This document shows positions 1 to 64,000 of a stretch of DNA of 64,000 bases, piece by piece. Position 1 is the first letter of the stretch. Each line of letters starts with the position of its first letter. This DNA comes from Rhina ancylostomus (taxonomy: Eukaryota): contig JARFYF010000002.1 of NCBI GenBank assembly GCA_030265395.1, forward strand, positions 39,815,987-39,879,986, written 5' to 3'. The position numbers and the translations under genes are program-made. Below the pieces are notes generated by a model. The model was not told where the DNA came from. It did no database searches and worked only from the letters and a program-made list of their open reading frames with translations.

Positions 1-140
1 TGGTCTGTATATCCTTTCTGAACTCCAAGTCTTCATTATTTGAGATTTGGCCCCCTACAGAGGTGTCATCTGCAAACGTGTAGATGGAGTTAGAGGAGAA
101 TCTGGCCACAGAGTCATGAGTGTAAAGTAGGGCGCTGAGT
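1..140 (-). mobile_element. Rex1/Babar-like LINE RT fragment (degraded)
   Basis: TCATCTGCAAAC (antisense of FADD-type RT motif) followed by GTAGATGGAGTTAGAG...TGGCCACA.AGTCATGAGTGTA; recognised by eye. Confidence 0.45.
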
Positions 141-5192: not shown

Positions 5193-7024
5193 TGAGGGGA
5201 GATCCAGGGTTACCTGGACCACCTGGACCTCCAGGACCACCAGGACCCCCAGGCCAAGCAGGATATCCAGGCAAGCCAGGTATTGGGCTGAAAGGAGTTC
5301 CTGGCGATCCAGGACAACCAGGACCACAAGGACTCACTTTAAAGGGTGCTCCAGGCATTCCAGGATCACCAGGACAGCCAGGAAGAATAGGATATCCTGG
5401 ACCAAAAGGTGATCCAGGAGTTCAAGGGATACAAGGGCAGAGAGGCAGTCCAGGGCCTCCAGGAAATCCTGGACCAGCCGGATTGTCAGTTGTTGGAAAA
5501 CCAGGTCCACCAGGGGCATCAGGATCTCCAGGCGTACCTGGATTACCTGGAGCAAAGGGACATCCAGGTTATCCTGGTCCTGCTGGGCCAAAAGGGGAAA
5601 GAGGAATTGGTATCCCAGGACCTGCTGGTGAGAAAGGACCTCCAGGTTCCCCGGGGTCACCAGGAATCCCAGGACCAGTGGGATTAAGTGCACCTGGAGC
5701 TCCTGGTCGCCCTGGGGAACCAGGTAAGAAGGGTGCAATTGGACCACCAGGCCCATCTGGTTTCACAGGTGCACCAGGTCAAAAAGGGCCACCAGGACCA
5801 CCTGGACAACCTGGACTTGGAAAGCCTGGAGCGAATGGTTCACCAGGATTACCAGGGCCCCCTGGTTTTAAAGGTCACCCTGGCTTACAAGGTTTGCCAG
5901 GGGCACCAGGCTTGCCAGGTATTGGAAAGCCAGGTGATCCAGGATCCAAAGGAGAACCTGGTCCAGTTGGTTATACTGGATATCCTGGAAAGAAAGGAGA
6001 GATGGGACCAATTGGGAAACCAGGACCTCCGGGATTAATGGGACCAGCTGGTATACCGGGATCAGAAGGCCTCAGAGGTTTACAAGGAATTCCTGGCTCA
6101 CCGGGTATGAAAGGGGCACCAGGGCACATGGGTATACAAGGCTACCCAGGATCAAAGGGTGAGAGAGGACCAACTGGTAGCCCAGGTATATCAGGACTTC
6201 CAGGAAAACCAGGTCCAACAGGTCTACCAGGACCAATTGGACCTGTGGGTCAAAAAGGTGATCCTGGGCTTACTGGTCCATCTGGTAAACCAGGAAGCCC
6301 TGGTGCTCCTGGTCCTCAAGGTCCGTTAGGTTTTCCAGGTCCAGTAGGTCTGAGAGGACCTGCGGGAACACCTGGTCACAAAGGCTTGCCTGGTTTGAAA
6401 GGTGCACAAGGGCTTCCTGGAAAAGATGGTGCTCCAGGAGCTCCAGGACTACCGGGACCTCCAGGCATTGTTAGCAGACAATTAATCAAGGGTTCACCAG
6501 GAGCACCAGGTCAAAATGGAGCAGTAGGCCCTCCAGGTCCACCAGGTCTTCCAGGCCCACCAGGTTTACCTGGTGAAATTTATGTCCAACCAGAAAAATC
6601 TGTACAGCCACCACCTGGATTATTAAGTCCTGTTCCAGCTTTTACAGCCATTCTATCTCGGCCATATCCACCAGTAGGTCAACCAATTATGTTTGACATA
6701 CTAGTGACCAATTCAAATAACAACTACAATCCAGCATCTGGTGTATTCACATGTGAAATACCAGGGCTTTACCAATTCAGTTACCATGTACAAATCAAGG
6801 GGGCAAGTGTCTGGGTTGCATTATATAAAAATGGAAAACCCATCCTACAAACATATGATGATTACACAACAGGGTATGTTGATCAGGCTTCAGGAAGTAT
6901 TATAGTACACCTACATGATAATGACCAAGTCTATGTATTGCTACCTTCAGAAGAAGCCAATGGTTTATATTCATCTGATGAGAAACAGTCATCATTCTCA
7001 GGATTTTTGATTAGCCCTTCATGA
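5193..7024 (+). CDS. col10a1: collagen type X alpha-1-like copy A, terminal exon (triple helix + C1q/NC1); 5' exons lie upstream of the window
   Basis: About 460 aa of Gly-X-Y with short imperfections, then a C1q domain (AFTAILS...[22 protein letters not shown]...[16 protein letters not shown]...SSFSGFLI). Phase-1 acceptor CTTTCTACCTTCACAG at 5191-5192 precedes VRG, as in vertebrate COL10A1. The track's ATG at 5171 is intronic. Confidence 0.9.
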
Positions 7025-16234: not shown

Positions 16235-16619
16235 GTATGTTTGACCTTTCATTTGTAATCAATTCTGTAAGCATGCAACAAAGGATGTATAAGTCAGGAC
16301 AACACATTCTGCTCATGATTAACTACTCTGTTGATGCGATTCTATTTAATTTAAAATTTTCAGTTTAGTTTGCAAATTTTCTGAATCAATTTATCACAGA
16401 ATTATTAAGCAAAAATACATTAACATTGGCCATTAATTACAAAGGCCTCTCAGAAATGTTTAAAATAATTGCAATTTAGAATCATAGCATACAGTATAAA
16501 AGTACCTTAAACCTTGCAATAATTTTGGTGGTCATTAACAAAAACTCTATTAATTAAAAAATAAAACCACCCTTTTTCTAACAGTTTCTGTTAATGTTCT
16601 ACAGATTTAAACTTCAAAC

Positions 16620-16731
16620 ATGGATTCAAAACAGATCTGTGCTCTTTTGTTGTTGGTTTCTGTGACTTTGGTCTACGGAACAGGATTTAATAGATATGCT
16701 TATTTACGCAAAAATGTAAAAAGCCAAGGGG
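16620..16731 (+). CDS. col10a1: col10a1 copy B exon 2 coding part: signal peptide + start of NC2 (MDSKQICALLLLVSVTLVYGTGFNRYAYLRKNVKSQG)
   Basis: Acceptor TTCTACAG ending 16604, Kozak AACATGG, signal peptide like human COL10A1 LLLVSLNLVHG, phase-1 donor G|GTGAGT; too short for the ORF track. Confidence 0.85.
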
Positions 16732-28392: not shown

Positions 28393-28464
28393 ATTATCAT
28401 GTAAAAGGATATGATTCTCAGTATTCTGAAGAAGAAGAACAAGAAGACAGTGATGACAGCAGAG
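28393..28464 (+). CDS. col10a1: col10a1 copy B extra 72-nt exon, acidic NC2 segment ([D]YHVKGYDSQYSEEEEQEDSDDSR)
   Basis: Acceptor CTTTCCCAAAATAG, donor GAG|GTGGGT, symmetric phase 1-1, open frame joining exon 2 to the terminal exon; same-length counterpart in copy C. Confidence 0.7.
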
Positions 28465-28741: not shown

Positions 28742-30600
28742 ATTTTGAAGCAGAACAAGGACTACATGGAATACGAGGACCACCAGGCCCACGAGGACCA
28801 CCAGGCCCACAAGGCCACCCAGGGTCCCCTGGAAAAGATGGCATTGGGGTACCAGGAGCCCCTGGCAAACCTGGCAGACCAGGGGCACCAGGACTGTCAG
28901 CTATGGGAAAACCAGGAATACCTGGAGCACCAGGAAGACCAGGTGGAGCAGGAGCCCCAGGAGAAAAGGGCGACAGAGGACCCCAAGGGATTCCAGGACC
29001 CACAGGCAAAGTAGGACCCATAGGATATCCTGGTCCGGCAGGATTATCTGTTGCTGGTAAACCAGGACCCCAAGGGCCACCAGGTTCTGCAGGAGCACCA
29101 GGTCAACGAGGGGAAAGGGGACTGCCAGGGCCCATGGGTCTTCCAGGGGCAAAGGGGGAAATGGGAGTGGGAATGCCTGGGCGTCCTGGTAGCAGAGGGG
29201 AAGGAGGCCCTCAGGGGCCACCAGGCCCGCCTGGACCAGCAGGAATAGGAATGGCTGGTGCTCCTGGTCGTCCAGGTGCACCGGGTGAAAAGGGGGCCAG
29301 GGGCTCACCAGGTCCAACAGGATATACAGGCGCACCAGGCCCAAAAGGACCAGCAGGAAGTCCCGGATTACCTGGAATGGGAAAGCCCGGAAAATCAGGT
29401 GCACCAGGGATGCCAGGAGCCCCTGGAAGTAAGGGTGCCGCTGGTCCACAGGGTTTGCCTGGTGCACCTGGACTGCCTGGTTATGGAAAACCAGGATTAC
29501 CAGGTCTCAAAGGAGAACCTGGTGCTATAGGTGCCACTGGTTACCCAGGTGAGAAAGGAGAGCCAGGACCATCTGGAGCACCTGGAGCTCCTGGATCCAG
29601 AGGATTACCAGGTCCAGCCGGTCCACAAGGCCCAAGAGGCTCAACAGGTGCAATGGGTGCACCAGGAGAGAAAGGTCCTATGGGGCCTGCTGGTCGGCCT
29701 GGATATCCAGGACCTAAGGGTCAGATGGGACCAGCTGGTGCCCCTGGAAAATCAGGAATGCCAGGACTGCCAGGTACACCAGGCCAAGAAGGACAGCAAG
29801 GACCAGCTGGCGCCAAAGGCAGTATGGGACCTGCTGGTGCACCTGGTAAACCAGGAAGCCCTGGCCTTCCAGGTGGTCAAGGACCAGTAGGGTATCCTGG
29901 TGAAGCAGGGGCAAGAGGAAATGCAGGCCCACCTGGCCCAAGAGGTCCAGCTGGCGCTGCAGGTGCTCCAGGGTTTCCTGGAGAAAAAGGAGATCCAGGA
30001 CGTCCTGGCCCACCTGGTCCTCCTGGAACCTTTTATGGGAAAATGAGTAGTGGCCCACCTGGTGCACCTGGAGCAGAAGGACCACCAGGCCCTCCAGGTC
30101 TTCCTGGCCCACCAGGCCCACCAGCAGAAATGTTTACACCACCAGGCAAGTACAATTATAATGGTTACATTAAATCAGGAGAGCCCTCAACTGGGTTGCT
30201 CAGTCCCTACCCAGCCTTTACTGCTATCCTTTCCCACTCATACTACCGTNNNNNNNNNNNNNNAGTATTTGACAAATTAGTGACCAATTCAAATAGGAAC
30301 TATAATCCATCAACTGGCATTTTCACATGTGAAATACCTGGTATCTATCAGTTTACTTATCAGGTGCAAGTCAAGGGAGCAAATGTTTGGGTTGGATTAT
30401 ACAAAAATGATGAGGCTGTGATGTACTCATATGATGACTATACAGAAGGTTATATTGATCAGGTCTCAGGAAGTGTGATCTTATATCTACATGAAAATGA
30501 CCATGTCCATGTTCAGTTACCTACAGAAGAGTCTAATGGTTTATATTCTTCAGACCTCATGCACTCATCATTCTCAGGGTTTCTAATTGTCCATTCATGA
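28742..30600 (+). CDS. col10a1: col10a1 copy B terminal exon (triple helix + C1q/NC1); 14-N gap at 30250-30263
   Basis: Acceptor TTTTCTAAATTACAG at 28741, phase 1 ([D][14 protein letters not shown]...), about 455 aa Gly-X-Y, C1q domain with [16 protein letters not shown] and HSSFSGFLI; spliced CDS 112+72+1859 = 2043 nt (680 aa). Confidence 0.9.
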
Positions 30601-43959: not shown

Positions 43960-44425
43960 AATCCAGACACATTGCAAATTTCTATAGATGTACAGAGGAG
44001 ACCATCACAGCCTGGTATGGAGGCTCCAATGCACAGGATGGCAAGGGGCTGCAGAGGGTTGTAGACTCAGCTAGCTCCATCACAGGCACAACCCTCCCCA
44101 CCATCAAGGATATCTTCAAGAGGCGATGACTCAAGAAGATGGCATCCATCACAAAGGACCCTCATCATCCAGAACATGCCTTCTTTGCCTACCATCAGGA
44201 AGGAGGTACAGAAGCCTGAGACCCACATTCAATGATTTAGGAACAGCTTCTTCCCCTCCACCATCAGATTTCTGAATGGTCTATGAACCCATGAAAACTA
44301 CTTCATTATTTCTTTGTTTTGCATTATTTATTTTGTAATAATTTTAATGTCGTTACACTGTACTGCTGCCGCAAAACAACAAATTTCATGTCAAATAAGT
44401 CAATGATAATAAACTTGATTCTGAT
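43960..44425 (+). mobile_element. Rex1/Babar-like LINE 3' fragment
   Basis: ATCACAGCCTGGTATGG...CTGCAGAGGGTTGTAGAC...CCATCAGGAAGGAGGTACAG; tail GATAATAAACTTGATTCTGA. Confidence 0.7.
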
Positions 44426-46949
44426 ACCATTTACTAGATGTTTATCAGCTGCCAAGGAAAGACTTTGAGCAGCCTATTTACCATCTGGAGCATCAAAGCC
44501 ATCTCATCAGCATTTTCACCACTTATTATTTCTCAGTTTGCCTGAAAACACTTGGTTTAAGAATCCTACATTTAGAAGTTTTTTATTTAATTTTATCAGT
44601 AAAATCATGGTCAAGATATCTCAAAAGTTGTCCATTGACTCAGAACTTGAAGAATTTTCTGTTTTTGTTAGGTATCTAGCAAGATTAAATTTTAAATGTT
44701 AAACTACTGTCAGATATCTGAGTATTTAGGAGGTACTTCCTGCATTTCAACATTCATTACATATTTTTAAAATGATATCCAATTTCTTTTCGGAATTTTA
44801 AGATGTGGGACAACAACTAGTAGTTATACAACACATTTAAAGTTGATTCAATAATAATATTAGCAGAACTAAATAAAGTCCATTAGAAAATGTTATCTTT
44901 TGCTTGAACTGTTGATGTAGGCATACTTCTATATTTTTGATGTGATATCATTGCTTCTTCAATTTCAGTTCCTGCAACTAAGATTACTCAATCCACTTTA
45001 ATGCAAAGTAAAAATCACCTCACAACCACAGGCATTGCGTAGCAGATATGAAAGATATTCTATGGTACATCCAATCAGAACTAGTAAATCAGAACAGCTA
45101 CTGATTAAACATTTCAAGTAACTATTACTGACATCACAGCTTCAAAACTATAATCTTAACTGATATGCAATAATAGCCAATTAGTAATTTAATTAATAGT
45201 TGTTGTTACCTCATTAGTTCAAAACAATTAGAATACCTAATATTCACTATTTTAAAATCAGACATGGACATCATTTATCAGTATCTACCTTATATTGCAG
45301 TAGTTCAAATGAAGAACAATTAATATGCCAGGTAATGGAATGATAATGCCCATCTCATTATAACTGCAGAAAGTTAGAAAAATATTGGTCTGCATTTCTC
45401 TGGGGTACAACAGCAATTCAGCACAGAACTACCAGCATTTCTCAGCACAAGTACAAGTATGTTTTGGGACTCCCACAGAGACAAAATTACTGCCAGAGTT
45501 CCAATAACTGTGCTCTGCTGCCAGAATTCAACTACGGAGCAGTAGCTTGCTGAGATACCCCAGCATTTTCCTGGAAAATTTTTTTCTAACAGTCTGCTCT
45601 AAATTGGACCATAATTTTCTTGTTCCAATCATTTCATGAAAAAAAGCTACATTACTTTTAATAAAAACAAATGCAATTTTTTTTCTTGATGTATGTACCT
45701 ATCTATCTCTATCTGACTGTATTTATGACCTTCAATTTTTTTCAGAATTTTAAATTATGGGACAACAAGTAGACAATTTAAATGGTAATTAGGGTGCAGA
45801 TTTTTTAAGAACACTAAATTAAACTGGATTTGTTTTTGCATTAATTTGCAACTTAAGATCACAAACCAGAATATGAGACTTCAGAAATTAAGCTCTAAGT
45901 AGGATGTAGCATAGTCTTTATAAAGACTGTACTTTGTGCAAAATAGTACCAGTTCATCTGTCATTTGGTTTTCAACATTTTTATATACTTGTCTTTAATT
46001 TGTTCAGGAGGTAAAAACAAGCTGCAATGGGTTGTATATAGTAACTTATCCCAGCACAGAATTTAACCAGATACTCACTAATGGGATGTGTTTCAGTTCA
46101 TAATATAGCCTGTGGGACAAAATGCAAAAAAACACTTTGGAAAAGGAGCAATTAGATAAAGTTACATTCAAAATTTTCATGTACCAGAAGGGGTATTCGG
46201 TATATCCCACAAAACTTGTAGATTAAGTTTAGAATTGCACCAAGTACATTGACCTCTGTAATTAGATTCTGGAAAAAACATTCAGCTCATGAACCATGCT
46301 ACAGGAATATGAATTTATAACATCCCACCCCCCATGTTTTCTCAAATAAAGGAGACCCCTTGGTAATATACATTGTATCACAGTAATGTTCCTCCAGTGC
46401 TAAGTAAACACACAATGTTACTCTTCAAACACACTTCCCTTAAATGTATTCCCAAATGGGTTTTAAAAGTGACTGAATTACAAAGANNNNNNNNNNTCAA
46501 AATTTCAAAAATTGATTCCTAATTCTGAATCCAAATTACAGTAACCAACTAAAGGTAGTCCATTTTAGAATTAAATCACTTTTTGCATCTGAGACTTCAA
46601 TCATTCAGAATTTAGATAAGTCATTCAACTTTGACTGGAATTTAAATATCTATGCTAATTAACATGGCCCAAGTAAATTATTCCACTCTATTTTCGAGTG
46701 ATTTCAGGATTCTAGGTCTGATCAGAAAATATCTAGGTGCAAGCAAACTAGATAGTAGCAGCAGTATATTGCATCCCATTATTTAAATTCAGTTCAAGCT
46801 CTTTCAATTAATATATGGGCCAAGTTCATGCACAGTTAAAATTTGTCATAAATTAAAATTATGATCAAAAAGGAAAATAAAGCCGTGAAATACATTATTT
46901 AACTGCCACATTTAAATTTGTTTTAATGTCANNNNNNNGAAACAATTGA

Positions 46950-47211
46950 CACAATTAGAAAAAAAATCAGCAATTTTCTTTAATCTTATCAAGATTTTAG
47001 AAAGATGCAAATACATTTCTACATTGTCATTAAAATTTTTCCTATTGCCAAAGGCCACTCCCAAAGGATGCAATGCAACATTGACCACGAGAAACTCCCT
47101 AACTTGTTGTAACATTTTGATATTTTAAAAAAGTACAGACTGCATAATTAATGCTTCCACTTAAACAGGAGGAGCCATAAAATTATCTGTAGAACCACCT
47201 CTATATAAATA
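46950..47211 (+). promoter_or_regulatory. proximal promoter of col10a1 copy C (TATA 47202-47211)
   Basis: CTATATAAATA with upstream blocks alignable to the copy B promoter (TGCCAAAG, ACCAC.AGAAA..C.CTAAC.TG, CATAATTA, AGGAGGAG). Confidence 0.7.
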
Positions 47212-47231
47212 CAACGGGATTCATCACTTTA

Positions 47232-47306
47232 AAGTTATTTTTCATCCAGTTCAATCTGTTGGAAAACCTTTGCAGAAGAGCAAGTCCACGAAGACCACAA
47301 ACACCG
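47232..47306 (+). other. col10a1: col10a1 copy C non-coding exon 1 (start approximate)
   Basis: Follows TATA; donor CCG|GTATGTTTG matches the copy B exon 1 donor. Confidence 0.65.
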
Positions 47307-47661
47307 GTATGTTTGTTTAGAATTTTGTTCAGAGTTTTGTCAATATACAGAAGAATAAGGAAATATGGGATCTAGTTCACTGGCTTCATCAGCATTACAT
47401 TCTGTGTCCTTTAAACACTCTCAATGTCCATGTGTCAAAATCTTGCAGCTAAACTATTGACTGCTGACATTTTGCTTTTACCTGCTTAGCAAGAAATGTT
47501 CTGGGAAACTGCTGGATTTTAAAATCAAACCTGGCATGTAACACCTTTCAGATATGATTATGACTGCTGTTAATTATTTCAAAGGGCTCCACATAAGAGG
47601 GACAAAATAAAACATTTTGTGAGTATTTCTAAATCGAAAGATTTAGATCAATCCATCCATC

Positions 47662-49465
47662 CATAGGATAGCTAGAGTGAGGGTAGGACCAATCAGGGAT
47701 AAAAGAGGAAATATGTGCCCGAGTTGGAAGAGGTAGGGGAGGTCTTTAATGAATACTTTGCTTCAGTATTCACTCATGCGAGAGACCTTGACATTTGTGA
47801 GGATAGCGTACAACAAGCTGATACACTAGGGCATGTCGATGTGAGGAAAGAGGATGTGCTGGAACTTCTGAAAAATATTAGGATAAATAAGTCACTGGGG
47901 CCAGACGGGATATATCCAAGGTTATACGGGAAGCCAGGGACGANNNNNNNNNNNNNNNNNNNNNNNNNNNNNNNNNNNNNNNNNNNNNNNNNNNNNNNNN
48001 NNNNNNNNNNNNNNNNNNNNNNNNNNNNNNNNNNNNNNNNNNNNNNNNNNNNNNNNNNNNNNNNNNNNNNNNNNNNNNNNNNNNNNNNNNNNNNNNNNNN
48101 NNNNNNNNNNNNNNNNNNNNNNNNNNNNNNNNNNNNNNNNNNNNNNNNNNNNNNNNNNNNNNNNNNNNNNNNNNNNNNNNNNNNNNNNNNNNNNNNNNNN
48201 NNNNNNNNNNNNNNNNNNNNNNNNNNNNNNNNNNNNNNNNNNNNNNNNNNNNNNNNNNNNNNNNNNNNNNNNNNNNNNNNNNNNNNNNNNNNNNNNNNNN
48301 NNNNNNNNNNNNNNNNNNNNNNNNNNNNNNNNNNNNNNNNNNNNNNNNNNNNNNNNNNNNNNNNNNNNNNNNNNNNNNNNNNNNNNNNNNNNNNNNNNNN
48401 NNNNNNNNNNNNNNNNNNNNNNNNNNNNNNNNNNNNNNNNNNNNNNNNNNNNNNNNNNNNNNNNNNNNNNNNNNNNNNNNNNNNNNNNNNNNNNNNNNNN
48501 NNNNNNNNNNNNNNNNNNNNNNNNNNNNNNNNNNNNNNNNNNNNNNNNNNNNNNNNNNNNNNNNNNNNNNNNNNNNNNNNNNNNNNNNNNNNNNNNNNNN
48601 NNNNNNNNNNNNNNNNNNNNNNNNNNNNNNNNNNNNNNNNNNNNNNNNNNNNNNNNNNNNNNNNNNNNNNNNNNNNNNNNNNNNNNNNNNNNNNNNNNNN
48701 NNNNNNNNNNNNNNNNNNNNNNNNNNNNNNNNNNNNNNNNNNNNNNNNNNNNNNNATTCACTGTGGGGTTGTTGCGAGGAAAGGCACTGGAATGGGCCAC
48801 GGCCATTTGGGACCACCAGCCAGAGACCTGCTTCTCGTTTCACACCTTCATCGAGGAGATGAGAAAGGTCTTTGATCAACATTGTGACATCTGGTTAGAC
48901 CACACTTGGAGTATTGTGTTCAGTACTGGTCATCTTGTTATAGGAAGGATGTGGAAGCTTTAGAGGGGGTGCAGAGGAGATCTACCAGGATGCTGTCTGG
49001 ATTAGAGAGCATGTCTTATGAGGATAGATTGAGCGAACTAGGGCTTTTCTCTTTGTAGAGAAGGAGGGTGAGAGGTGACTTGATAGAGGTGTACAAGATG
49101 ATAAGAAGCACAGATTGAGCAGACAGTCAGAGACTTTTACTCAGGGTGAAAATGACTAACACAAGAGGGCATAATGTTAAGGTGATTGGAGGAAGGTATA
49201 AGGGGGATGTCAGAGGTAAGCTGTTTACACAGAGAGTGGTGGGTGCATGGAACGCACTGTTGGCAGAGGTTGTGGAGGCTGATACATTAGTAACATTTAA
49301 GACAGTCTTAGATAGCCACATGAATGATAGAGAAATGGGAGGGAAGGGTTGACATTTGGGAGGAAAGTACTTGATAGATATTAAAGCAGGATAAAATGTC
49401 GGCACAACATTGTGGTCCAAAAGGCCTGAACTGTGCTGTAGTGTTCTGTGTTTTATGTTCTATCT
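47662..49465 (+). mobile_element. CR1 LINE pieces flanking an ~810-N gap in intron 1 of copy C
   Basis: EVFNEYFASVFT...KSLGPDGIYPRL before the gap; [11 protein letters not shown]...TRGHNVKVIGGRYKGDVRG and TTCTGTGTTTTATGTTCTAT tail after it. Confidence 0.85.
48757..48880 (+). mobile_element. Ty3/Gypsy (Sushi-like) gag fragment
   Basis: GLLRGKALEWATAIWDHQPETCFSFHTFIEEMRKVFD matches the retrotransposon-gag LLxGxALxWA...W...F..E...VF pattern. Confidence 0.7.
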
Positions 49466-49664
49466 GGTGTGCTTTTCCTCTTTCCACAGATGTGAGTGAA
49501 AATGCCTGTCAAACTTTGAAATTGACAACTGTTTTATCAAAGTAGTTTTTGCTCATGTAAAAATTGGAGGGAAATATATTGCATTGCCTCAACTCAAATG
49601 TCCTTGAATGTTGTTTTCTTTTAATGCTTCTCAATGTTGCTTTTTCTAACATTATAGATGCAAC

Positions 49665-49776
49665 ATGGTTTCAAAAGAAATTAGTGCACTTCTGCTATTG
49701 CTACCACTGAACCTGGTTTATGGAACTGATCTTATCAGATATGTATATCCAGCCTATAATATAAAAAGCTACGGGA
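49665..49776 (+). CDS. col10a1: col10a1 copy C exon 2 coding part: signal peptide + start of NC2 (MVSKEISALLLLLPLNLVYGTDLIRYVYPAYNIKSYG)
   Basis: Acceptor TTTTTCTAACATTATAG at 49657, Kozak AACATGG, 112 coding nt as in copy B, phase-1 donor A|GTAAGT, ungapped similarity to copy B exon 2. Confidence 0.85.
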
Positions 49777-50254
49777 GTAAGTCTGTATTTTATCCTTAAA
49801 TATTTATTTGGAATAGTTACAGCTTATATAATGCAATAGACAGATAAAGATGACAAAATTAGCTGTAATTTAAATGCAAGCTGATCACTGTTCTTAAGTT
49901 TAACTGTAGTTTGATTTTAAGCCTATGCCTTATTTTGTGTTCCACAAGTAGACTGCACTTGGGGAAAAGGGAGAAAAATAACTAAAAATGTAACTCTGAA
50001 CTGATCAACCAGCAAGGCATAAGTACTAATCATTTACTAAGATTTGTAACAAGCATTCCCTCAGGTAAATTAATTTCCAAGATCCCTCCAGTAAGTTCAG
50101 TTGAAACTAATTCCCACAGAGATAATAGGATATGGTTCAAGTCCAAAGAGCCACTCAGCAGATTGTCTCAAAGCATTATAATACTGCTCAAAACATGCTC
50201 AATCTACACCACACATTTACTTAAAAGGCTAAACATCTGGTCACAAAAATTAGC

Positions 50255-50420
50255 GTGGTTATGGTGTGACAAGATTTACCTCTTGGTCAGAAGATTGTGG
50301 GTTCTATCCCCATTCTAGACTTAAGCACATCATCAATGCAGATACTTCAGCGCAGTACTCAGGAAATGCTGCATGGTCAGAGGTGCTACTTTTATACAAA
50401 ATCCTTAAATCAGACTCCAA
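50255..50420 (+). mobile_element. old SINE (Deu/SacSINE1-like) fragment
   Basis: GTCAGAAGATTGTGGGTTC...CTTCAGCGCAGTACTCAGGAAATGCTGCA..GTCAGAGGTGC. Confidence 0.45.
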
Positions 50421-52699
50421 TTTAGAGGTCTGCTAAAGAATAAAATTAAAACTGGACCCAAATACAGCCAACCCAAAATTAACACTGGCNNNNNNNNNNA
50501 CTGATATTATTTCCATATCCAACATGACTATCAATCATGCTATTGATCTGTTTGAAGATAAAAACCCAAATAATAGAGAACAAATGTGGTCATACAAAGA
50601 TAATTAACTTCATAAGTGAAGTACTGAGCCCAGCTGGCAAGGCAGGGCCTGGCTCAACCCAAACCACACTTAAGTATTTTATCAGAATATACACCTTGCC
50701 GACCTCAACACAGTACATGGAGTTGGGTCTTATCTGGCTCATTCGGGCAGCCAAGCTCTATTCTGAATGCCTACAAGTGGGTAAAAGAGGGGCATTTTTC
50801 TAATAGTACTCTAGACAATTTTTATCCCTCATACAATACTATCAAAACAGAGTTACTAGATATTCACTGCATTGCTGAGTAAACGTTAGCTGATATACTT
50901 ACTGGCATAATCACTGCAATTATATTCCAAAGACTGCTAATTGGCTGCAAGTGCTTTAAGGCATCCTGAAGATGAGTATGATAATATCTTAATTTAGTTC
51001 TTTCTTCTTTAGTATAGTTTCCAACAAGCTGATAGTTACTGTTGCTGTCATCAGTTACTTTTCACTGGAAATTGTACCCATTCATATCTGTTTACATGTA
51101 TAAATCACTCATAAAAATCATTTTCCACATGTTTTGAAGTGTTTGCACCCATTACCATTGAAGCCCCAACTATCGAGATGTTGGCCCAGTCACAATTCAC
51201 CCTGGCCACTTCCCTACTTTCACATGATCATATGATCACATGTATTAGGCATAGTATGACTTACTTCCTTTCTGACTGAAACTGTGTCAGAAGGTTATGA
51301 GATGCAACCTTCATTTTTCACTGACAGTATCACAAGGAGCAAATTATGCAAGGGAGCATACATGCATGAAAGGGTCCCTGGTAGAACATTGTTTTTAAGT
51401 ACTGATTCTTACACTTTTGTTTTTATTTGCTGATCTTTAACTGAAATCACCACATCTCTAAATTGTGCACCTCCGTGGACCCCAATTCTACCCCTTCTCT
51501 CTGTTTTCCCTCATCACCATTGCAACCTGTGTGGTTGCCATGGAGAGTGCACTTCAACGAAGTTGAACTACTTCCCAGCAAACAGAACGAAAATGATGCA
51601 GTAGCTACAAACTCTGCAAGCATCTGGTTTCTACAAATGAATAGGTTGTATTCTACCATTTCTAAACAAGAAGAAACCATGATAATAATTTCTTAAAATG
51701 AATTTTGGGTGAACCTAATTTAGTGTTAACACCATATACAAAACGGCGTCAAGAACATGTCAAGAAACTGTGAATTTCAACATCTCAGCACTTCTGTGAG
51801 AAAACTGGACTCCAATAAGCAACATAATTTCTAATTTGCTTGGATGATTTGCATATCAAAAGTATTAAATATAAAATACCCAAAATGCCTTGAGTGGCTT
51901 CCTGTAGTAAAAGAAATTTGCAAGCTTACATTAAATCTAATTACTGTAAAATTACATAAAGAACAATTTACAATTAATACAGAAAAAACTTTTATTAAAA
52001 TAATATTCTATCTCAAAAGACTAATTTTTGCAAAGATAAACAGAAAATTAGCATATCTTCAATCAGTATATATACCCAGAAGTAAAGCTAAAATAAAGAT
52101 AAGTAGGTTTAATTAGTGACTGAAAAATTCACAAGAACTTGTTAATTCTGTACATCAGATAATAAGTAAAATCAGAGTTTTCACAAGTCTATCAAATTTG
52201 TTGATGCAATCTTTCACCAAGGAAAATTAATTTAAATATATTTTCTGATCTTGATATGGAACAGTTTTCTTTTAATCGATAATGTTTGCCATTGGGAAAT
52301 CATGCCTCATTTTTGTTCCTTGCATCCTATCTAAAATTTTATGCAAACGCTGAACAATCAGTAAGAAGACTTTGGGCCACAATTCATTTTTGTACATTCT
52401 ATCAGTGAGATATGGAAAAGACAGTTGCAATGAAATCCAACTGCTTAAACACTCCAGTTAACTGCTGAAACAAAATTATTTCATTGATCCAGAAATAGCA
52501 TGCCACAGATTTCTCATACATTCTTTTTGTCTTTCATCTGTAACGTTCACAGTAAAATGTAAAATTAAAACGCATAATACAATATTTATTGCAAACCTCT
52601 CTCTCTATTGAATTATATTCTCCAAAAGATTAAAGTCCAAGAATTAGAAGTGGAATTCTCCAATTTCAGGGATTTGCACTCAGCAGCTTGTGGATATAG

Positions 52700-52830
52700 C
52701 AAGTTCTGATAAAGGGTCCCGGACCTGAAACATTACTTATTTCTCTTTCCACAGATGCTGCCTGACCTGCTGAGTTTTTCCAGAAGTTTCTGGATTTTTT
52801 TCAGATTCCCAACATTTACAGTTTTTGTTC
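52700..52830. repeat. single arm of the GATGCTGCCTGACCTGCTGAG repeat family
   Basis: TTCTGATAAAGGGTC...CCTGAAAC...CCACAGATGCTGCCTGACCTGCTGAG; relatives near 3790-3910, 19013-19090, 38489-38890, 56745-56815. Confidence 0.65.
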
Positions 52831-54301
52831 TGATTTTTGCTTGATTTTAACCCGATCCACTTTAGAGATCTGCCTCCTAAAGCTGAGTGACATATTTCAT
52901 TACCAATGTAAATTTACAGAGAGAAAAAAATATCTATTTAATGGGCCAGAATGGTATCAGCAACTGACTTGCTTTTTGCTGATCAGAAAATGTTGACTTG
53001 CTGTCCTGATCCAAAGCTGTGAGGCACTGGCAACAGTAGAACCTTGCATGATACCGCATGCAGCAGGGAGATGGGATTTAGGGCAAGTACTTGTCACAGA
53101 AGGGCTAAAAAGTTTTTGACAGCTAGCTAGTAAACCTGTCACACATTGGGTGTGCCTACCAGTCAAAATCAAAATCAACTAAATAAAAACATTATTGAAA
53201 ATAGAAAAGTTAAATGACAAAACACTTTAAAATAAATAAAGCTGAAAAGCAAATTCAATTAAGTTGAAGTGATGCAAGCCAGTGTTTGTGTTATCCTTAT
53301 CACTCAGAGACATTCCACTTCATGTAAGTTAATGCAATCATTTTTCCTGAAGTCAGTCTAAACCGGTGCAGGGTCTCTGATAAGATTCCTCAGTGTAAGT
53401 GCTGGGAAACTGCATTATGTTCACACTCCATCAATTGACCCAGCTTCAGTGCTACATTGTGCATCTACTATGAGTGCATTCTTGCAGAAAAGAATGACTA
53501 GAAACAAAATAGAGCATCCACATCTCATCTTACCAGAAGTTTTTCTTTCACTATAAGATTTGCTCAGATCCATAATAGTGTTGTGTAGACGACATGACCA
53601 TCATGGTGCCCTGGAGATCTAGAAGTTCATGGTTGTCTAATCAAGTAGAGGTCATACTAGGATTTACATTCCTAACTAATGATTTTCTGCCACAAAGAAT
53701 CCTAAATCAAAATCATCCTTACAAATAAACATCAATAATATTACCACAGTGTTCTTTCAAAATAAGTAGCTAAATTATGTTCTTTGCAAATATTAAATTA
53801 TAACATGCTTGTGGAAAACATGGACTGGTTTAGGAATCTTGGCAGGATCAATAAGGAAGATAATTTACATAAGCAATCAATAATAAAACTGATTAAAATA
53901 CTNNNNNNNNNNNNNNNNNNNNNNNNNNNNNNNNNNNNNNNNNNNNNNNNNNNNNNNNNNNNNNNNNNNNNNNNNNNNNNNNNNNNNNNNNNNNNNNNNN
54001 NNNNNNNNNNNNNNNNNNNNNNNNNNNNNNNNNNNNNNNNNNNNNNNNNNNNNNNNNNNNNNNNNNNNNNNNNNNNNNNNNNNNNNNNNNNNNNNNNNNN
54101 NNNNNNNNNNNNNNNNNNNNNNNNNNNNNNNNNNNNNNNNNNNNNNNNNNNNNNNNNNNNNNNNNNNNNNNNNNNNNNNNNNNNNNNNNNNNNNNNNNNN
54201 NNNNNNNNNNNNNNNNNNNNNNNNNNNNNNNNNNNNNNNNNNNNNNNNNNNNNNNNNNNNNNNNNNNNNNNNNNNNNNNNNNNNNNNNNNNNNNNNNNNN
54301 N

Positions 54302-54580
54302 GGACAGCATTTATCCCACTGTTATAAGACTACTGAACAGTTCTCTTGTATGATAAGATGGACTCCTGACCTCACAATCTACCTCGTTATGACCTTGCAC
54401 CTTATTGTCCACCTGCATTGCACTTTCTTTGTGGCTGTTCAACTTAATTCTGCATCCTGTTCTTGTTTTACCCTATACTACCTCAATGCACTGTGTAATG
54501 AATTGATTTGTATGAACAGTAGGCAAGACAAGTTTTTCACTGTACCTCGTATATGTGACAATAATAAACCAATTCCAATT
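54302..54580 (+). mobile_element. Rex1/Babar-like LINE 3' UTR
   Basis: Closely matches 35615-35900 (GACCTCACAAT.TA...CCTTGCACCT...ATGTGACAATAATAAACCAATT). Confidence 0.75.
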
Positions 54581-55088
54581 CACTGGGAAAATAATAGTAA
54601 GTTCACAACACTTGTTCATTATCAACAACTTAAAAAAAAACTATCAGTGATGTTGATGACTGAGTTGTCATTATTCTTGTACTTCTTGTACCTTGTTGTC
54701 CCATGAAGATCCAAAAATTGCTGGATTTGCAATTAAATTCAAATTAACCTCACTGCAGTAATGCCACAGTTATCTCAATTCATAAGAACCTTGTTATAAT
54801 TTCTGGATCTGACATGCCACTTAGCAATGGAGGCTCAGAAATTTAAAACATCACGTAGACTGTAAATGGTTTCCAATAGTTTTTTCCCGCTATGTTCTCT
54901 CTTTATGTTTCGTCTCTCCCTCCCCTAATCCAATCCTCTTTACCATCTATTTTCCTCTGTATTCAGTCTGGGATTAATGCACCATTTCTTCCATATAGTT
55001 TCACAATTCCTTCACTTTTTTTTAATTTCATTGGGAAAGGAGGGAAGTCTTAGATTGCCCATTAACTTTATTGCACTATTGTTAGATG

Positions 55089-55380
55089 AGATATCTTTAT
55101 CAGTCACATGTACATCGAAACACACAGTGAAATACATCTTTTGCATAGAGTGTTCTGGGGGCAGTCCGCAAGTGTTGCCACGCTTCTGGCACCAACATAG
55201 CATGCCCACAACTTCCTACCCCATACATCTTTGGAATGTGGGAGGAAACCAGAGCACCCGGAGGAAACCCACGCAGACACAGAGAGAACATACAAACTCC
55301 TTACAGACAGTGGCCAGAATTGAACCCGAGTTGCTGGCACTATAATAGTGTTATGCTAACCACTACACTACCATGCCCGC
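55089..55380 (-). mobile_element. tRNA-derived SINE, near full length
   Basis: Minus strand begins GGGCATGGTAGTGTAGTGGTTAGCATAACACT...CGGGTTCAATTC (A and B boxes), then core and tail. Confidence 0.8.
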
Positions 55381-57594
55381 AAATTATTAATTTGCACTAC
55401 CAATGTCCGGTGGTTAATAAAAGGTAAAAGCCAAAAAGCAACATGAATTTACAAATGGTACAATACAAATTTGTACATTTCTATCTCAATCAACAGGATA
55501 AATGGAAAATATGTGATCAACTACATACCTTTCATATCACCTTGAATGTCACCAGCTGCAGGAGAGGTGCTTAACATTTAAACACTTTCATGGTTGGGGA
55601 ATGACAAGGAAGCAAGTAGAAACCTAAATCAAGTCAATTAACTGATTGTAAAGAGATTGTAAAAAGTGTTTGAACAAAAAAATCTAATAAACTTCAAGTG
55701 GTTCAGAGGCAGATACATAATTTTATGTAGAAATTAAACAAATATGACCCAGATTTTGCAGATGTAACAACGGCAAAACTCATACCACCTTCTGCACTAT
55801 GCATGTATACAATGCTGTCACAAAGAAGATCTAGTCACTGACTCCCTGTTCATCCACAGGTTCTGAAACCTGCCTCAGTGTAATCTGCAAAAATCAGTGA
55901 TCTAACGAAAACCTCAAGTATTTACATTCCCACTATGAAAATGTTAAATGAAGCACTTTCTTGCAAGCGAGTATTTAACAGTGCACCAGGCCCTAATTAT
56001 GGCTTATTATCTCTTGAATACTATAAAACCCACTTTTACAAGTACAAATTGTCTGTCCTACTGATAAATATTTCAAAAGTCAGTGGACATTTGATCATTG
56101 TTTTCACCTTCTTTATCAGAGATGTTATTTTGTAACTTGTAATGTTAAAAATTGTGTTTTTTTACTTCTTGACTTACTGTCTGTGAAAACTAATTGATAA
56201 ACTGCTTAGTTTGCTTGATGACATCATTGTTACTGGTAGCTAGGGATCCTGTTGAACTGATACCGAACAGCAAACAATTTGAGAAAATTCTGTGGGCTGC
56301 TTTCTTCAAGATCAGCAGTAGGTGCAATCAATTTGTCACTGATTACATACTTTGAGGCCATAAACCTCAAAGGATTTAACCTCCGTTTAATCCTTGGTGG
56401 TCCGACTCAGAAACTGAGATTTGAATTTTGGAAAATAATCCCCTGGAGTACACTTGATCACAAGATTCTTGCCTGATCTTTACTTCTGCTCAATAAGCGT
56501 AAGTAAGTTGTCAATCAAAATAGACTTGCTTACATGTGGCCATCAAGTTCAAATCGCTATGACCACAAAGGCATAGCTATCTGACCTAAGTCTGAGAAGA
56601 TCCAACTCTGTGTGTCAGATTTGGATGAGAATGGCTTTAAAAAAAATTGCTTCTTTGAATCAGGTTGGGTCCGCAACATTTACAAATGAATGTGCTAATA
56701 AGGTATCCAGATTCTTGAATATCAAAAAAACTTCAGGTGTTATAAAAACAGAAAATACTGAAACACTGCAAGTCAGACAGCATCTACAGAAAGAGCAAAA
56801 TTTCAGGTTGAAGCCCCTTTTCTTGTTTTGAAACATGTATAAATGTATCTAATTTTACATGTTGGTGTGTCTTATGCTATCTGAGTGAGTGAAGGGGAAG
56901 GTTTGGTACCAAGTGTACTCAGTCACCACACAGGGAACATGAGGCGGTCTCTGTCCAGGTTCAAGAAAAGGGCGTTGGTAAAAGGAGCAGAAGTTGCAAC
57001 TTGGATTCAGAGTTTGATTGAAAGAGGTAACACAAAAAAAACATACTTGCACTCAAGGGTTTTACATGGAAGCCAAGTTGTAAAAGTTGGCGCTACTAGT
57101 AGATGCAGGGTCAATTAGACTCATGCCGTGTACTATCAACACATACTATTATAGACAATGATCAAATCATGTTTTACTTTTATTACTGAGTAGATCCCTA
57201 GTGTCCACTCATATAATTTCAGCAATATGTTGCCCAGAATCCCAACTTTATCATAAAGTATTCATTGCACTCTGGAATTTTGATGTTGTTTTGTTAAACA
57301 AGGTACAATTCTTGTCTTATATTGTTGAATATTTCTTCCTGTTGCTTATTAGCAAATTTCAACAAAAATGGGAATGCAAGAACTAGTTTGTTTTTAACCT
57401 AACAGAATAACTTCTCTTATTCGACTAGATGGGCTACTCCATATTCATAAATCTGAAAGAAATTGTTACTCATTAGGATTGTTAAAAGTCCTTCCAAGGT
57501 TTTACACCAAATTTATATAGCCCTGTAAAAGGGAACATACTTTTTTTTTAATCCTATCAGTAACTTCTTTTGTTGTTAATTTTTTCAAAAATAG

Positions 57595-57666
57595 GCAATG
57601 AAATAAATTTGCATCATTCAGCAAGCAAAGAAGACAGTGAGCATAACAGCAACTCAAAATCTGCAA
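57595..57666 (+). CDS. col10a1: col10a1 copy C extra 72-nt exon, Ser/His/acidic NC2 segment ([S]NEINLHHSASKEDSEHNSNSKSA)
   Basis: Long polypyrimidine tract + CAAAAATAG acceptor, donor A|GTAAGC, exactly 72 nt, phase 1-1, open in the frame set by exon 2; shares AAGAAGACAGTGA with the copy B mini-exon. Confidence 0.6.
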
Positions 57667-58739
57667 GTAAGCCAATTTCAATATTTGTAAGCAGAGTTTA
57701 TAATTGAAAATTGAGCATCTTTACTCCAAGGTAAGATCTCCAGTTTAGCAAGGGAAGAAATTTTAGGAAGCTGCCTTAATGTGCTTTGCTTCAGTATTTT
57801 GAACACATACAACAACAGAACATGTAAAAGCAGGAATACTAGAGACTGTGGATTGTGGACCACATCAACAAAACAGGCCCATCAAAGCCAAAAAGGTGGT
57901 AGATCATTTACATGTGTAATATATCACTGGATTAATTCCTCAGGTGACAGGACTGTCCCATACTGAGAGAATGACTTAAATTGGCTTTAATTCATAAAGT
58001 TTGAAGATTAACTTGTGATCTCATTGAAACATACAAGATTCCCATACCAATTATATGTTGGTAGGATGTTTCCTAAAAGGCAAATACTCAAGGGACCAGT
58101 CATTTAGAACTGAGATATAGAGATGTTTCTTTACAATGGATGTTGGTTAATTCTTATAGTCTCCTATCCCAGAAGCCCATGGCAGCTCAACACTGAATAT
58201 ATTTTGATTCGCAGACTGATTGATTTTTCAATATTTGCTGAATATATACTCTTAGGCTTTTCCAGTGGCACTCTTAATGATCTCCCAAGTTCTATCCATA
58301 TAACACAGAACTCTGCACTCACAGCCTTATTTTTGCAAAGCCTTAGAGTCATACAGCATGGTGAAAAGTTCTGATCATTTTTCACCTCTATGTAGTGATT
58401 TTAAAATTCTGATCCAAATCCGCATGTTTTTCTGTGGTCTCTCTTCACCATGTCACCCTCGCTCTTCCACAATCAGTCTCTGCTTACAATAGCCACCCTT
58501 CCAACTCTACCCAGTAAGTGTATTTCATTTCCACTGCTTCACCAATAGCAGAGTCTGCAGTCAACTTCCCCATATGTCCTGGAAATGTATCCTTGGATCC
58601 CACCACCATGCTTACTAAAATGACAACCAAGCTATCTTGAAATACCTCCATAAAACCTGCTATTTCAACTGTTAATCAGCCTCTAATTTCTCATTTTACT
58701 ATAACTCAGCCATGACAAGTACAGCAAAGCACATTGATA

Positions 58740-59232
58740 GTGCTAGAAAAGGTGTAAAGGTTGCCAGTATGTTGCCTGGGATGGAATATTTTATTTATGA
58801 GGAGTGACTGGAGAGCTTACGTCTGTTCTCCCGTGAGCAGAGGAGATTAAGAGGGCAACATGTTAGGGTATACAAAATTATAAGAATATAGATAGGGTAG
58901 GCTGCAGGAAACCTCTCCCCACATCAGAGGGAGTTAAAACTTGAAGATGTAGATTTAGGGTAAGGGGTTAAGGTACTTGGAAGAGATCTGATGACAATCT
59001 TCTTCACCCAGACTGTGGTAAATACCTAGAATGCACTGGCTGAGAGAGCATTTGAAATTGGGTTGCCGACAACATTTAAAAACTGTTTAGATGAGCACTT
59101 GAATCACCTAGGCATAGAGGGTATGGTCCTAGTGCTGGGAAATGGGATTAATATGGAAGAATTCCCACTGGTCAGCGTGGTTGAGTTGGGTTGAATGGCC
59201 TGTTTCCATGCTGTATGATTCTATGACTATAT
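58740..59232 (+). mobile_element. CR1 LINE 3' portion
   Basis: GAGCAGAGGAGATTAAGAGG...TATACAAAATTAT; tail GGCCTGTTTCCATGCTGTATGATTCTATGACTATATG. Confidence 0.75.
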
Positions 59233-60989
59233 GGTACAATGTGCATGATGATTCATTGGTTTATATAAAATCACTTCAAACTTTTAACACATATTTAGGA
59301 AAATAAGACCCCTTTCATCTTTACATTAAAGGCAGTGACCAAAAGCTTGCAAAGTGGTTTCAGTCTTGCTAATGTCGAGCTATTAAAGATTTTGACTTAT
59401 TGGAAGATCCCAAAAATGAATAATAAAACATAATGGGTTGGCTTTAATAAAGAACAATGAAAGGGTGAATAAGATTATGGAGTAATTTGAAGAAGTGTTT
59501 GAGAATCCTGAAAAAGTCATTAAGGTTAATAAGAATGTGAAGCTGGATGAGGATGTGATTAGTGTGGAGCATAGGCTGCAGAGGTTTGGATTATTTGAAA
59601 GTGACAACATATGGAGTTGAGTTGGCTGGCAAGAAGAAATCAACTTGGAGATCATCAAAGTTTAGACATGGGTTTTTCTGTTGGTTAATGTTCTTAAGTT
59701 GATGACTGTGGTTTTGGAAGCAATTCAAAGCAAGGCTTAAGACTATTAGGATTGCAGAGAAGCTCAGGATTCACACATTCAGGTTATGCCTAAATGAGGA
59801 CCAAAGGACAGTAATGGAGTGAGAGATGGAGGTACCTTGAAGATGCTATCAATAGTCAAATAAGGTGACATGGAGCTGAGGAAATTCATAGTCCTACCAA
59901 TTTTGCAGTATAACAGCATACCTGCAGCCAACAGTGGTGGAGCTGAAGTGGTCTTGGGTCTCATCAAGCAGCTTTCTGACCAAAACTTGCATTTAGAATG
60001 CTGTTGTTTTGCTGTTTAACCACAAGACACCCAGCAGTGATAATATTTGATTTGCTTTCCGGTCTCCCCTACTATCCTGTATTAGCTTTAATGAAATTAG
60101 AACATCCTGTGGGGAAATTAGTGTATTGAGTTCAGATTCTACTGCACTTGTAGGATGTGTTAATCTCTCATTGATTTCCAAAAAGGAAATGGTGAATGAC
60201 AGTGGTTGCATATATTTGCACCACAGGCATTAGTTATGTTGGCCTAAGGATAGGCACTAGTTGTCACTTCCCAATTTGTCTTCTGTTACCACATCAGGTT
60301 TTGGTATGAAGAGTATTCCATTTTTAGACACTATAAATACATAATCTGCGGAGTTTCTTCCCTTAAAAGTACCTTAAAATCAATATTAAAAAGCACAAAA
60401 AGTCAGAAGTGCTTTTAGAATGTGTATTTTTTCAAAAATAACAATCTAAACATGAAGCATGCCAGGAACTTGTAATTTATGAAAAAATAATACTGACCTT
60501 TTGTGGAGAAAGAAGTTCCAATGAAGAACTATTGGAGGCTCAAGGTATCAAATATAAACTAGCAGTGTACATACCATCTATGCCAAATAAATCAGGAACC
60601 TATTCACCATTATTTACAAACTAAAATAGTTGACAAAGTATAATGTAAAGATGTTTCCTGATATTATAGACATTTATGTTTGCAGACTTTTGTAAACAAA
60701 AACTGCTTTGATATTCAAATTGGTTTAAGTTAGATCCAACTATTCCATTTCCTTAATATAGTCTGCAATTTTATTATGTCCAATCAATTTTGTAAAAATA
60801 CATGGCATAGTTGTTGCAATTTTTTGATGCTCTATTTCTTACTTCTCAAAAAGCAATTACACTTTTCCATGATATAGTTGCACAGCATTGACTAGTTTTC
60901 AGTTCATTTCTAATGCATTATTATCATTGTGAGATTCTTGATAGTAAATGGCAACAATAAGAACAGCTGATGCTCATATGAGATCTTTA

Positions 60990-63240
60990 ACATTACAGCA
61001 TGAAAACGGGCCATTTGGCCCATTATGTACATCCCAACCAGTGGGCACCCATCCCGATTGGTCCCATCTACCAGTACTTGGCCTGTAGCTCTTTATGCGT
61101 CAATAATTTAAGTGCTTGTCTCGACACTTCCTAAATGCAGTCAGCGACTCTGCTTCTACCCCCCTCCCTGGCAGTGCATTTCAAATATTTACCACAAAGA
61201 TATAAAAAGATCCCCCTAAATTTTTGCCCCTTACCCTAAATCCATGTCCTTCAGTTTTATTCACATCTGACCTCACTTCTCCTGTCTCTTTTCATAACTG
61301 AACTGCTCCACCCCAGGCAACATTCAGGTGGATCTCCTCTCTACCCTCTACTGCACCATCACATTCTTCTCTGTGTATGGTGAACAGAACTGGATGCAGT
61401 AATCCAGCTGAGGTCTAACCAAAATTTTATAAAGTTCATCATAATTTCTCTATTTCTGTATTTGATAACCCAGCTAATGAAGGCCAGTGTACCATATGCC
61501 TTCCTAACAATATTATATATCTATGTTGCTATGTTCAAGGATCAATGGATTTCTACACCAAGGTCCCCTTGATCCTCAATATTCCCTAAGACCTTATTTT
61601 TCATGGTGTATAATTTAGCCTCATGAGTGCTCCCAAAATGTATCACCTCACATTTTACTGGATTAAACTCCATGTGCTATTTTCTTAGCCCATTTCGCCA
61701 ATACACGATATCTCTTCGCAGCACAAGATGAACTTCCACACCATCAACAGATCTGCCAATCTTCATGTCTTCAGTGAACTTGCTGATCATGCCTCCCATA
61801 TCCAAGTCATTCAAGCATATTACAAACAACAAAAGTCCCAACACCAATCCTTGTGGGATGCCACCAGTCACAAAAACAATTGCAAAAACAGCCACCTACC
61901 ATCACCCTCTGTCTCCTATTATCAAACCAATCTTGGATCCAGTTGGCTAAGCTACACTGGATCCCATAGGCCCTAACCTTTTGAACCAGTCTCCCATGTA
62001 GGGCCTTGTCAAAGGCTGTATTAAAGTCCATATAATCACTCATTATTCTGCCCTCATCACCATACTTCTAAGAATTCAATAAAATTGGTCAGACAGGCTC
62101 TGCCCTTTACAAAGCCATGTCAGCCCTCCCTCAACTCACAGCAGCCTAAGATAAATCCAATCCAGTCCAGGGGATTTATCCACCTTTATGTACCTTCTCT
62201 TTATTTATGGAGACCTCCATAACTTTAACCCTCTCCTTCACCAAATTGTCCAATTATGAAGTCTGTTTCCTTTGTGAACACTGAAAAGCACACCTATATT
62301 TTCTGGCTTTACATGCAGGTTGCCCATGTTGGGCCATACTTCTTACCTGTTTATTCCACTCAGCACCTTTAGAATTACCTTAATTCTGACTGCCAGTGAT
62401 TTCTTGTGACCCTCTTAATCTTCCTAATTTCTTTTTTAAGCATCTCCCTACACTTTTTATACTCATGACAGGTCTCCCCTGTCATTAATTCCCTCACATG
62501 CTTCCTTTATCCTCTTTATCGATTCCTCGATATCTCTGGAGATTCAGGGTTCCCTTGTTACCCCCTAGCTTTTACCCTTAACAGGAATATGTTGGCTTTG
62601 AAATCTTGCTAGTTCTTTTTTGAATGCAGATGGATTTTACCTGTAAGTAGATGTTCCCAATCTACCTTTGTCAGGTTCTCTCTTACATTAATGAAATTGG
62701 CCTTCCCCCAATTTAAGACCTTTATTATTGGTCCATCCCTATCATTTCCCAAAACCACTTTAAGGTACATAAAATATGGTCATCATCTCCAAAATGATCC
62801 TCCGCAAACACTCCCTCTACTTGACCAGTTACACAAGATAAGGTCCAGCAATGCTCCTTCATTCACTGGTCTATCTACATACTGCATCAAAATGCTCTTC
62901 TGGACACACCTCAAAAATTCCACCCTCTCTGAGCATTTAAAGATCAGACAATCGCAGTTAATATTTGGGAAACTGAAATGCCCTGGTACGATAACTTATT
63001 TTCATTGCATCGCTGATATTTGCCTGCACATCTGTACCTCTACCTCCCATTAACTGTTGGGAGGTTTGTAATAAACCTCCAACAAAGTGACAACACCCTT
63101 TGTTTCTAATCTCTAATCATATGGCCTCATTTGAGGAGCATTCTAGGATATCCCCCATCAATACTGCAATCTTTGATTAATGGTGCAATACCTCCTCCCT
63201 TTTTATTCATAGCTCTGTCACACTTGAAAATTCTAATCTA
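60990..63240 (-). mobile_element. degraded CR1 LINE (endonuclease to 3' UTR)
   Basis: Minus strand YMDFNTAFDKALHGRLVQKVRAYGI...NWIQDWFDNRRQRV and VTGGIPQGLVLGLLLFVICLNDLD...ISKFTEDMKIG. Confidence 0.85.
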
Positions 63241-64000
63241 ATCTTTGTACAATAACCTGCTCACATCCCCATCTCTCGAATATGAATTTTGTTAAATGAT
63301 CCTTGTTGCTGAATCTCTCAATGTTGTGATTAGACTTTTAAAGCACAGTAGGAAATCTTCCTGGTCTATCATGTGAAATTTACCAGCATTTAAAAAAGCT
63401 TCACACATCTGCATTTATTTCCTGTATTTTTAAATAAATTTTAAGTATGTCATATTGAAAATTCAGTCGTATTTTCTTAGTTATTTTGTGCCAACCACAG
63501 TTTAAGACTCAAAAAAAGAAATATTTAAGTGCAAGTTCAGTGCTCTCCCAGTCTTCAAACACAGATTTATGCCCACTTATAGTTCTCTCATTAATAAAAC
63601 CATGAAGTTACTTTGGTGCAACACTAGATTTAATGTCTGTGTTACATCCTAGGAAAAACCCCAGGCTAACATACACGTTTTATCCATCTCTTTATCTTGG
63701 TAAAATCTCTACAATCACCTCAACTGAGTTGTCTTTCTAACTTTACTTGAAGATGTGCAGAAATAAAAATATTTTGTATTTAGGGTTACATCTCTTCCTG
63801 TCTTGCCAAATCCAATATCTGTATTAATTCTACTAATTGGATGGGTTTGTGATACTATTCTATAATGGTCTTCAAAATGTTTCCAAACAAGGACTGTGGT
63901 GTGAAAAAATTTGTGAGAATTAAATCTTACAAAACTATCCTCAACTGACCTGTGTGCAGTTCTGGTCGTCCCATTATGGGAAGGATGTGAGGTTTTGGAG

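Follow-up and report, generated by a model that had tools for sequence, protein, structure and literature searches.

We identified positions 57595–57666 of a 64,000-nt stretch of Rhina ancylostomus DNA (the window) as a conserved exon of the collagen X paralogue Col10a1.5, which probably joins the signal-peptide exon in phase 1 and encodes the first Ser/Asn/acidic module of the SE domain of this protein, for which we propose a role in mineralisation. That the segment is a real coding exon with Col10a1.5 identity is almost certain. The SE domain, the orthologous peptide and the presence of paralogue-specific acidic modules are already in print (PMC6759074), and the finding is thus mostly an ordinary one, adding a further orthologue to a domain known from the literature and placing the first of its exon boundaries. 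This boundary would help to correct gene models that insert unrelated residues at this place or that fuse gene copies.

Three tandem collagen X genes in the window

The window contains three tandem collagen X genes, all on the forward strand, which are referred to here as copies A, B and C (Table 1). Based on comparison by eye with supplementary alignments, they are Col10a1.3, Col10a1.4 and Col10a1.5, respectively, of the published chondrichthyan cluster (PMC6759074). Cartilaginous fishes have five to six tandem Col10a1 copies, and the gene order.3-.4-.5 in the window agrees with that report (PMC6759074). The signal-peptide exon of copy B is close to the catshark Col10a1.4 probe and to Raja Col10a1.4, and copy B is nearer to skate and ray sequences than to shark ones, both as judged by eye. 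The signal exons of copies B and C have 21 of 37 residues in common, and the C1q domains that were compared are ~65–76% identical. The mature part is Tyr-rich in both signal exons, with four Tyr in 17 residues in copy C (49725–49776) and two in 17 in copy B (16680–16731).

The collagen exon of copy C lies outside the window. The signal exon of copy A was not found within the window, nor was there an acidic exon candidate in positions 1–5192, the 5.2 kb before its collagen exon. A tblastn match at 607–642 was considered as a copy A exon and rejected, as it was weak (E=7) and had an in-frame stop upstream. An 812-N gap upstream of the copy C signal exon is flanked by two reading-frame fragments, 47703–47943 and 48756–48963, which we take to be retroelement-like.

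Table 1. Positions of Col10a1 exons and of an internal AG in the window
Feature	Positions	Strand	Remarks
Col10a1.3 (copy A) collagen + C1q exon	5193..7024	+	
Col10a1.4 (copy B) signal-peptide exon	16605..16731	+	ATG 16620; 37 codons + 1 nt
Col10a1.4 acidic exon	28393..28464	+	72 nt, phase 1-1; both junctions in catshark cDNA probe
Col10a1.4 collagen + C1q exon	28742..30600	+	14-N gap near 30250
Col10a1.5 (copy C) signal-peptide exon	49658..49776	+	ATG 49665; 37 codons + 1 nt; Tyr-rich mature start
Col10a1.5 (copy C) coding exon 2, SE domain module 1	57595..57666	+	72 nt, phase 1-1
Internal in-frame AG	57620..57621	+	codons TCA GCA; unlikely to be a conserved acceptor

A conserved coding exon in Col10a1.5

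The copy C exon is flanked by AG on its 5′ side and by GTAAGC on its 3′ side. Its phase, reckoned from the signal exon ending at 49776, is 1-1, confirming the symmetric phase given in the original prediction. The peptide also reads as it was first written, with seven Ser, three His and two S-x-E motifs when the split Ser codon is added to the translation, and one of these two motifs is dependent on the junction. The exon is only mildly acidic (four D+E, two K+R). Its composition is unusual in the window, as only three stop-free stretches of 20 residues with at least 10 S/D/E exist in the three forward frames of the 64 kb, and these correspond to the C1q end of copy A, the copy B acidic exon and the copy C exon. 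A rule-based AG/GT scan of four non-coding regions, whose thresholds were chosen post hoc with the sites already seen, returned nine candidate symmetric exons, of which the 72-nt ones are the copy B and copy C exons; these also have the highest S/D/E fractions of the nine (0.57 and 0.43 versus 0.11–0.29). A 42-nt candidate at 52866–52907 was rejected, the horn shark protein giving no support for it. None of the three short peptides was assigned to a Pfam family, and 44000–64000 proved free of tandem repeats in a repeat search.

A HMMER search of 1.84 billion representative sequences with the copy C signal exon as query produced two matches, of which the horn shark model XP_067876004.1 was genuine and the other, a bacterial repeat protein, was spurious as it lacked any matched stretch. 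Between horn shark and copy C, 35 of 37 residues are identical in the signal exon and 18 of 23 in the exon at 57595–57666, and the horn shark N-terminus matched the window by tblastn with E=3e-7. The copy B signal exon has 59% identity to the horn shark segment, against the 35/37 of copy C. In addition, the copy C signal exon agrees with the published whale shark Col10a1.5, and the collagen/C1q part of XP_067876004.1 agrees with the published Col10a1.5 (PMC6759074). The peptide orthologous to the copy C exon is printed for whale shark and elephant shark in supplementary Fig. 3 of that paper; by eye, the whale shark sequence is identical at 18 of 23 residues and the elephant shark sequence at eight of the first 12, directly after the signal exon (PMC6759074). 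The second S-x-E is retained in all four species having the segment, the horn, whale and elephant shark sequences all being gene predictions. These identities, 18/23 with two sharks, do not bear out the view that the copy C exon is variable, at least among orthologues. As elephant shark has it, the exon is ancient, the holocephalan split being dated to 352–447 Ma.

The shark models also bear on the exon boundary. Both the horn and the whale shark models have unrelated residues inserted exactly at the signal-exon boundary, in keeping with an intron at this point. A retroelement RT fragment is fused with Col10a1.5 and Col10a1.6 in the horn shark model, making it chimeric, and its database name is ‘collagen alpha-2(IV)-like’. 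An Asp/Ser-rich module ending in S-S-E is present in Col10a1.6 too, and the portions of PMC6759074 available to us list no such domain in their text. The catshark and ray Col10a1.5 cDNAs are 5′-partial and stop short of the copy C exon (PMC6759074). Word-index protein searches yielded two candidates, neither of them scored, with the signal exon, 5/213 matches with the copy A C1q region, none of which was from a cartilaginous fish, and 0/6866 with the horn shark SE region.

The segment could instead be taken for a random open frame within an intron, its ends resembling splice sites by accident, since the acceptor word AAAATAG is common in this AT-rich DNA, with 19 copies in the window. Such a frame would not be expected to have protein conservation at the same position in three other species, or to be an outlier in composition, and we regard this reading as extremely improbable and effectively refuted.

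The original prediction also included an acceptor at 57621 that would produce a 45-nt form of the exon. The AG exists and is in frame, but the sequence upstream of it is 45% pyrimidine compared to 70% for the outer acceptor. Moreover, horn and whale shark have Ser-Leu where the codons here specify Ser-Ala, and as a Leu codon cannot begin with G, the internal AG is impossible in those two sharks. A conserved 45-nt form therefore appears unlikely from these comparisons.

A probable first module of the SE domain

The Ser/acidic SE domain of Col10a1.5 sits between the signal peptide and the helix (PMC6759074). Rather than being a single cassette, as had been supposed, the copy C exon corresponds to the first of about seven modules of this domain in horn shark, where a motif rule cuts the region into seven segments of 21–29 residues, six of which share a six-residue start. 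The start pattern of the copy C exon is that of five later modules and of the Col10a1.2 and Col10a1.4 modules. The 180-residue horn shark SE region has 50 Ser, 32 D+E, 15 K+R and 12 S-x-E motifs, and the copy C N-terminus as a whole is accordingly not less acidic. The copy C exon itself brings a single S-x-E site, which is conserved, together with a cluster of His, and the charge comes mostly from later modules. Those later modules were not found by tblastn or motif scans in the window up to 64000, in which the N gaps of the upstream intron are unread, and presumably lie beyond 64000.

The number of modules differs between species. Counts of the Q-[VIT]-K-G type of module are three plus one variant in horn shark, one in the whale shark model, and at least three in thornback ray and four in catshark, the latter two being counted in partial cDNAs. 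This variation, together with both exon boundaries here being at a module start, supports a reading of the SE domain as a series of short phase-1 exons, symmetric and arranged in tandem, derived from one ancestral acidic exon that was also the source of the Col10a1.2 and Col10a1.4 modules. On this reading, a collagen gene would have reinvented the SCPP design, with its Tyr-rich start and S-x-E modules encoded by exons, but using a different intron phase. We favor this reading by a narrow measure. Exon boundaries are fixed at the DNA level for module 1 and the copy B exon only, and the differences in module number could also be explained by gene-model and assembly errors. If it is true, the phosphate load of the SE array would be tunable via exon number or skipping. 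It would also offer a testable route by which an acidic dentin matrix resembling that of DMP1 was built on collagen in cartilaginous fishes, and a natural series in which the number of S-x-E motifs could be compared to the mineral of teeth and denticles.

An alternative is that the copy C exon is real but of separate origin, as an exonised intron that serves mainly as a flexible spacer and is unrelated to the copy B exon or the later SE modules. Its mild acidity would fit a spacer, as would the lack of significant similarity between it and the remaining horn shark SE modules taken together (p=0.47; best single module of six, p=0.048). However, the six-residue start shared with five later modules and with the Col10a1.2 and Col10a1.4 modules is not expected under separate origin, and a neutral spacer would hardly be expected to keep 18/23 identity to two sharks. 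We therefore consider this alternative unlikely.

The exons, phases and repeat number of the SE domain are not described in the portions of PMC6759074 available to us, whose main text has no splicing terms, and the exon make-up of the domain was not found in the literature searched, although subscription journals or supplement figures may hold it. Nor was COL10A1 exon structure found in the available part of PMC8706311. Five or six residues are common to the end of the copy C signal exon (49758–49776) and the beginning of the acidic exon of catshark Col10a1.4 (compare 28393–28415); a derivation of the acidic modules from the 3′ end of a signal exon might be imagined from this resemblance, but is speculative.

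Relationship to the acidic exon of Col10a1.4

The copy B acidic exon, whose acceptor is CCAAAATAG, fits the short acidic motif published for Col10a1.4 (PMC6759074). Paralogues do carry different N-terminal modules, as was anticipated for copies B and C, and the literature has this for Col10a1.2,.4 and.5 (PMC6759074). The original prediction went further, and the reading that follows from it has the copy B and copy C exons as one-to-one descendants of one cassette which kept its 72 nt and is alternatively spliced, either by skipping or as the 45-nt form. The two exons do share their phase and their position after the signal exon, and the symmetric phase permits skipping. Their acceptors, which had been called near-identical, agree at 12 of 20 positions, and the AAAATAG word within them is the one repeated 19 times in the window. 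A 13-nt word is common to both exons, a length reached in none of 3000 codon shuffles (p=0.0003), but the word begins at exon position 49 in copy B and 34 in copy C, an offset of 15 nt, and the shared EDS codon block is offset by the same distance. Aligned without gaps, the exons are identical at 27 of 72 nt (shuffle mean 21.5, p=0.08) and at only four of 23 residues, and their local alignment is not better than that of shuffled sequences (p=0.31).

The equal length of the exons does not extend beyond this species. In the catshark Col10a1.4 cDNA probe both copy B junctions are as predicted, with 81 nt between them by hand count, and by eye the EDS block is absent at the corresponding place. 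The match of 72 nt to 72 nt is thus a coincidence of this species; in addition, the elephant shark copy C module appears to be ~3 codons shorter, judging from its motif. A duplication of 9 nt within the catshark copy B orthologue accounts for its extra length. Three Tyr stand beside acidic residues in the copy B exon (28393–28464), and these may be tyrosine-sulfation sites.

Comparison to the horn shark modules also argues against one-to-one descent. The copy B exon aligns with the SE region downstream of module 1 (p=0.003); taken singly, modules 2–7 give p values of, in order, 0.009, 0.18, 0.005, 0.058, 0.001 and 0.15, versus 0.58 for module 1, the counterpart of the copy C exon. Later SE modules therefore fit copy B better than module 1 does. 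The single catshark cDNA examined does contain the copy B segment, and the internal AG needed for a 45-nt form is, as described above, impossible in two sharks. Taken together, descent of both exons from a single length-conserving, alternatively spliced cassette seems quite improbable. What stands of the proposal that the exon predates the duplication and kept its length is the great age of the copy C exon as evidenced by elephant shark; the length was not kept, and one-to-one equivalence of the two exons was not confirmed.

A proposed role in mineralisation

Our proposal for the function of the conserved Col10a1.5 exon draws on knowledge of Fam20C substrates and of collagen X. The exon would be part of most transcripts, and the secreted chain would carry a disordered N-terminal tail. 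Serines in the S-x-E motifs of the tail would be phosphorylated by Fam20C in the Golgi, and trimers driven by the C1q domain would present three phospho-acidic tails. Potentially, these tails bind Ca2+ and guide how apatite is laid down in dentin, in the manner of DMP1-type proteins.

Published observations relate to several of these steps. In catshark, the secretory odontoblasts of both teeth and scales express Col10a1.5, and the SE domain was likened to DMP1 by the authors, who reported a CDD/Pfam match (PMC6759074). Our Pfam search of the horn shark protein gave no DMP1 match at E up to 1. In elasmobranch matrix proteins, S-x-E has been put forward as a site for Fam20C, and the fam20C expression reported there is in ameloblasts, not odontoblasts (PMC9122587). 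Other chondrichthyan matrix proteins are also enriched in S-x-E (PMC13188829). Overall, we lean towards a mineral-binding role for the tail, with somewhat less confidence than we place in the exon and its position in the SE domain.

Comparison with known systems

In human COL10A1 the signal exon ends in phase 1 and is followed by one large collagen and C1q exon. The layout of signal exon and collagen exon in bony-vertebrate COL10A1 is like that described here, whereas acidic exons between the two are a feature of copies B and C; we know of no extra acidic exons at this position in bony-vertebrate COL10A1. The closest known system is the SE domain of Col10a1.5 itself (Debiais-Thibaud et al. 2019, PMC6759074), which is in the same gene copy and at the same position as the copy C exon. 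The difference is that the publication treats a protein domain (PMC6759074), whereas the exon boundary comes from the genome here. The short acidic domains of Col10a1.4 and Col10a1.2 have a start pattern like that of the SE modules, but are single short modules compared to an array of ~180 residues, and are not significantly alignable with the copy C exon.

Acidic SCPP proteins (DMP1-like; elasmobranch Scpp, PMC9122587) share with the copy C product a signal peptide, a Tyr-rich start, a D/E-rich region with S-x-E motifs and a mineralising tissue. In contrast, SCPP introns are mostly phase 0 (PMC9122587), whereas those on both sides of the copy C exon are phase 1. SCPP genes, whose products stand alone, also derive from the 5′ exons of sparc-L (PMC9122587), while the copy C signal exon is an exon of a Col10a1 paralogue whose orthologue is fused to collagen/C1q. 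The copy C tail probably functions in the same way as the tail of an acidic SCPP. Since its introns are phase 1 and its gene is a collagen, it is nonetheless not an SCPP.
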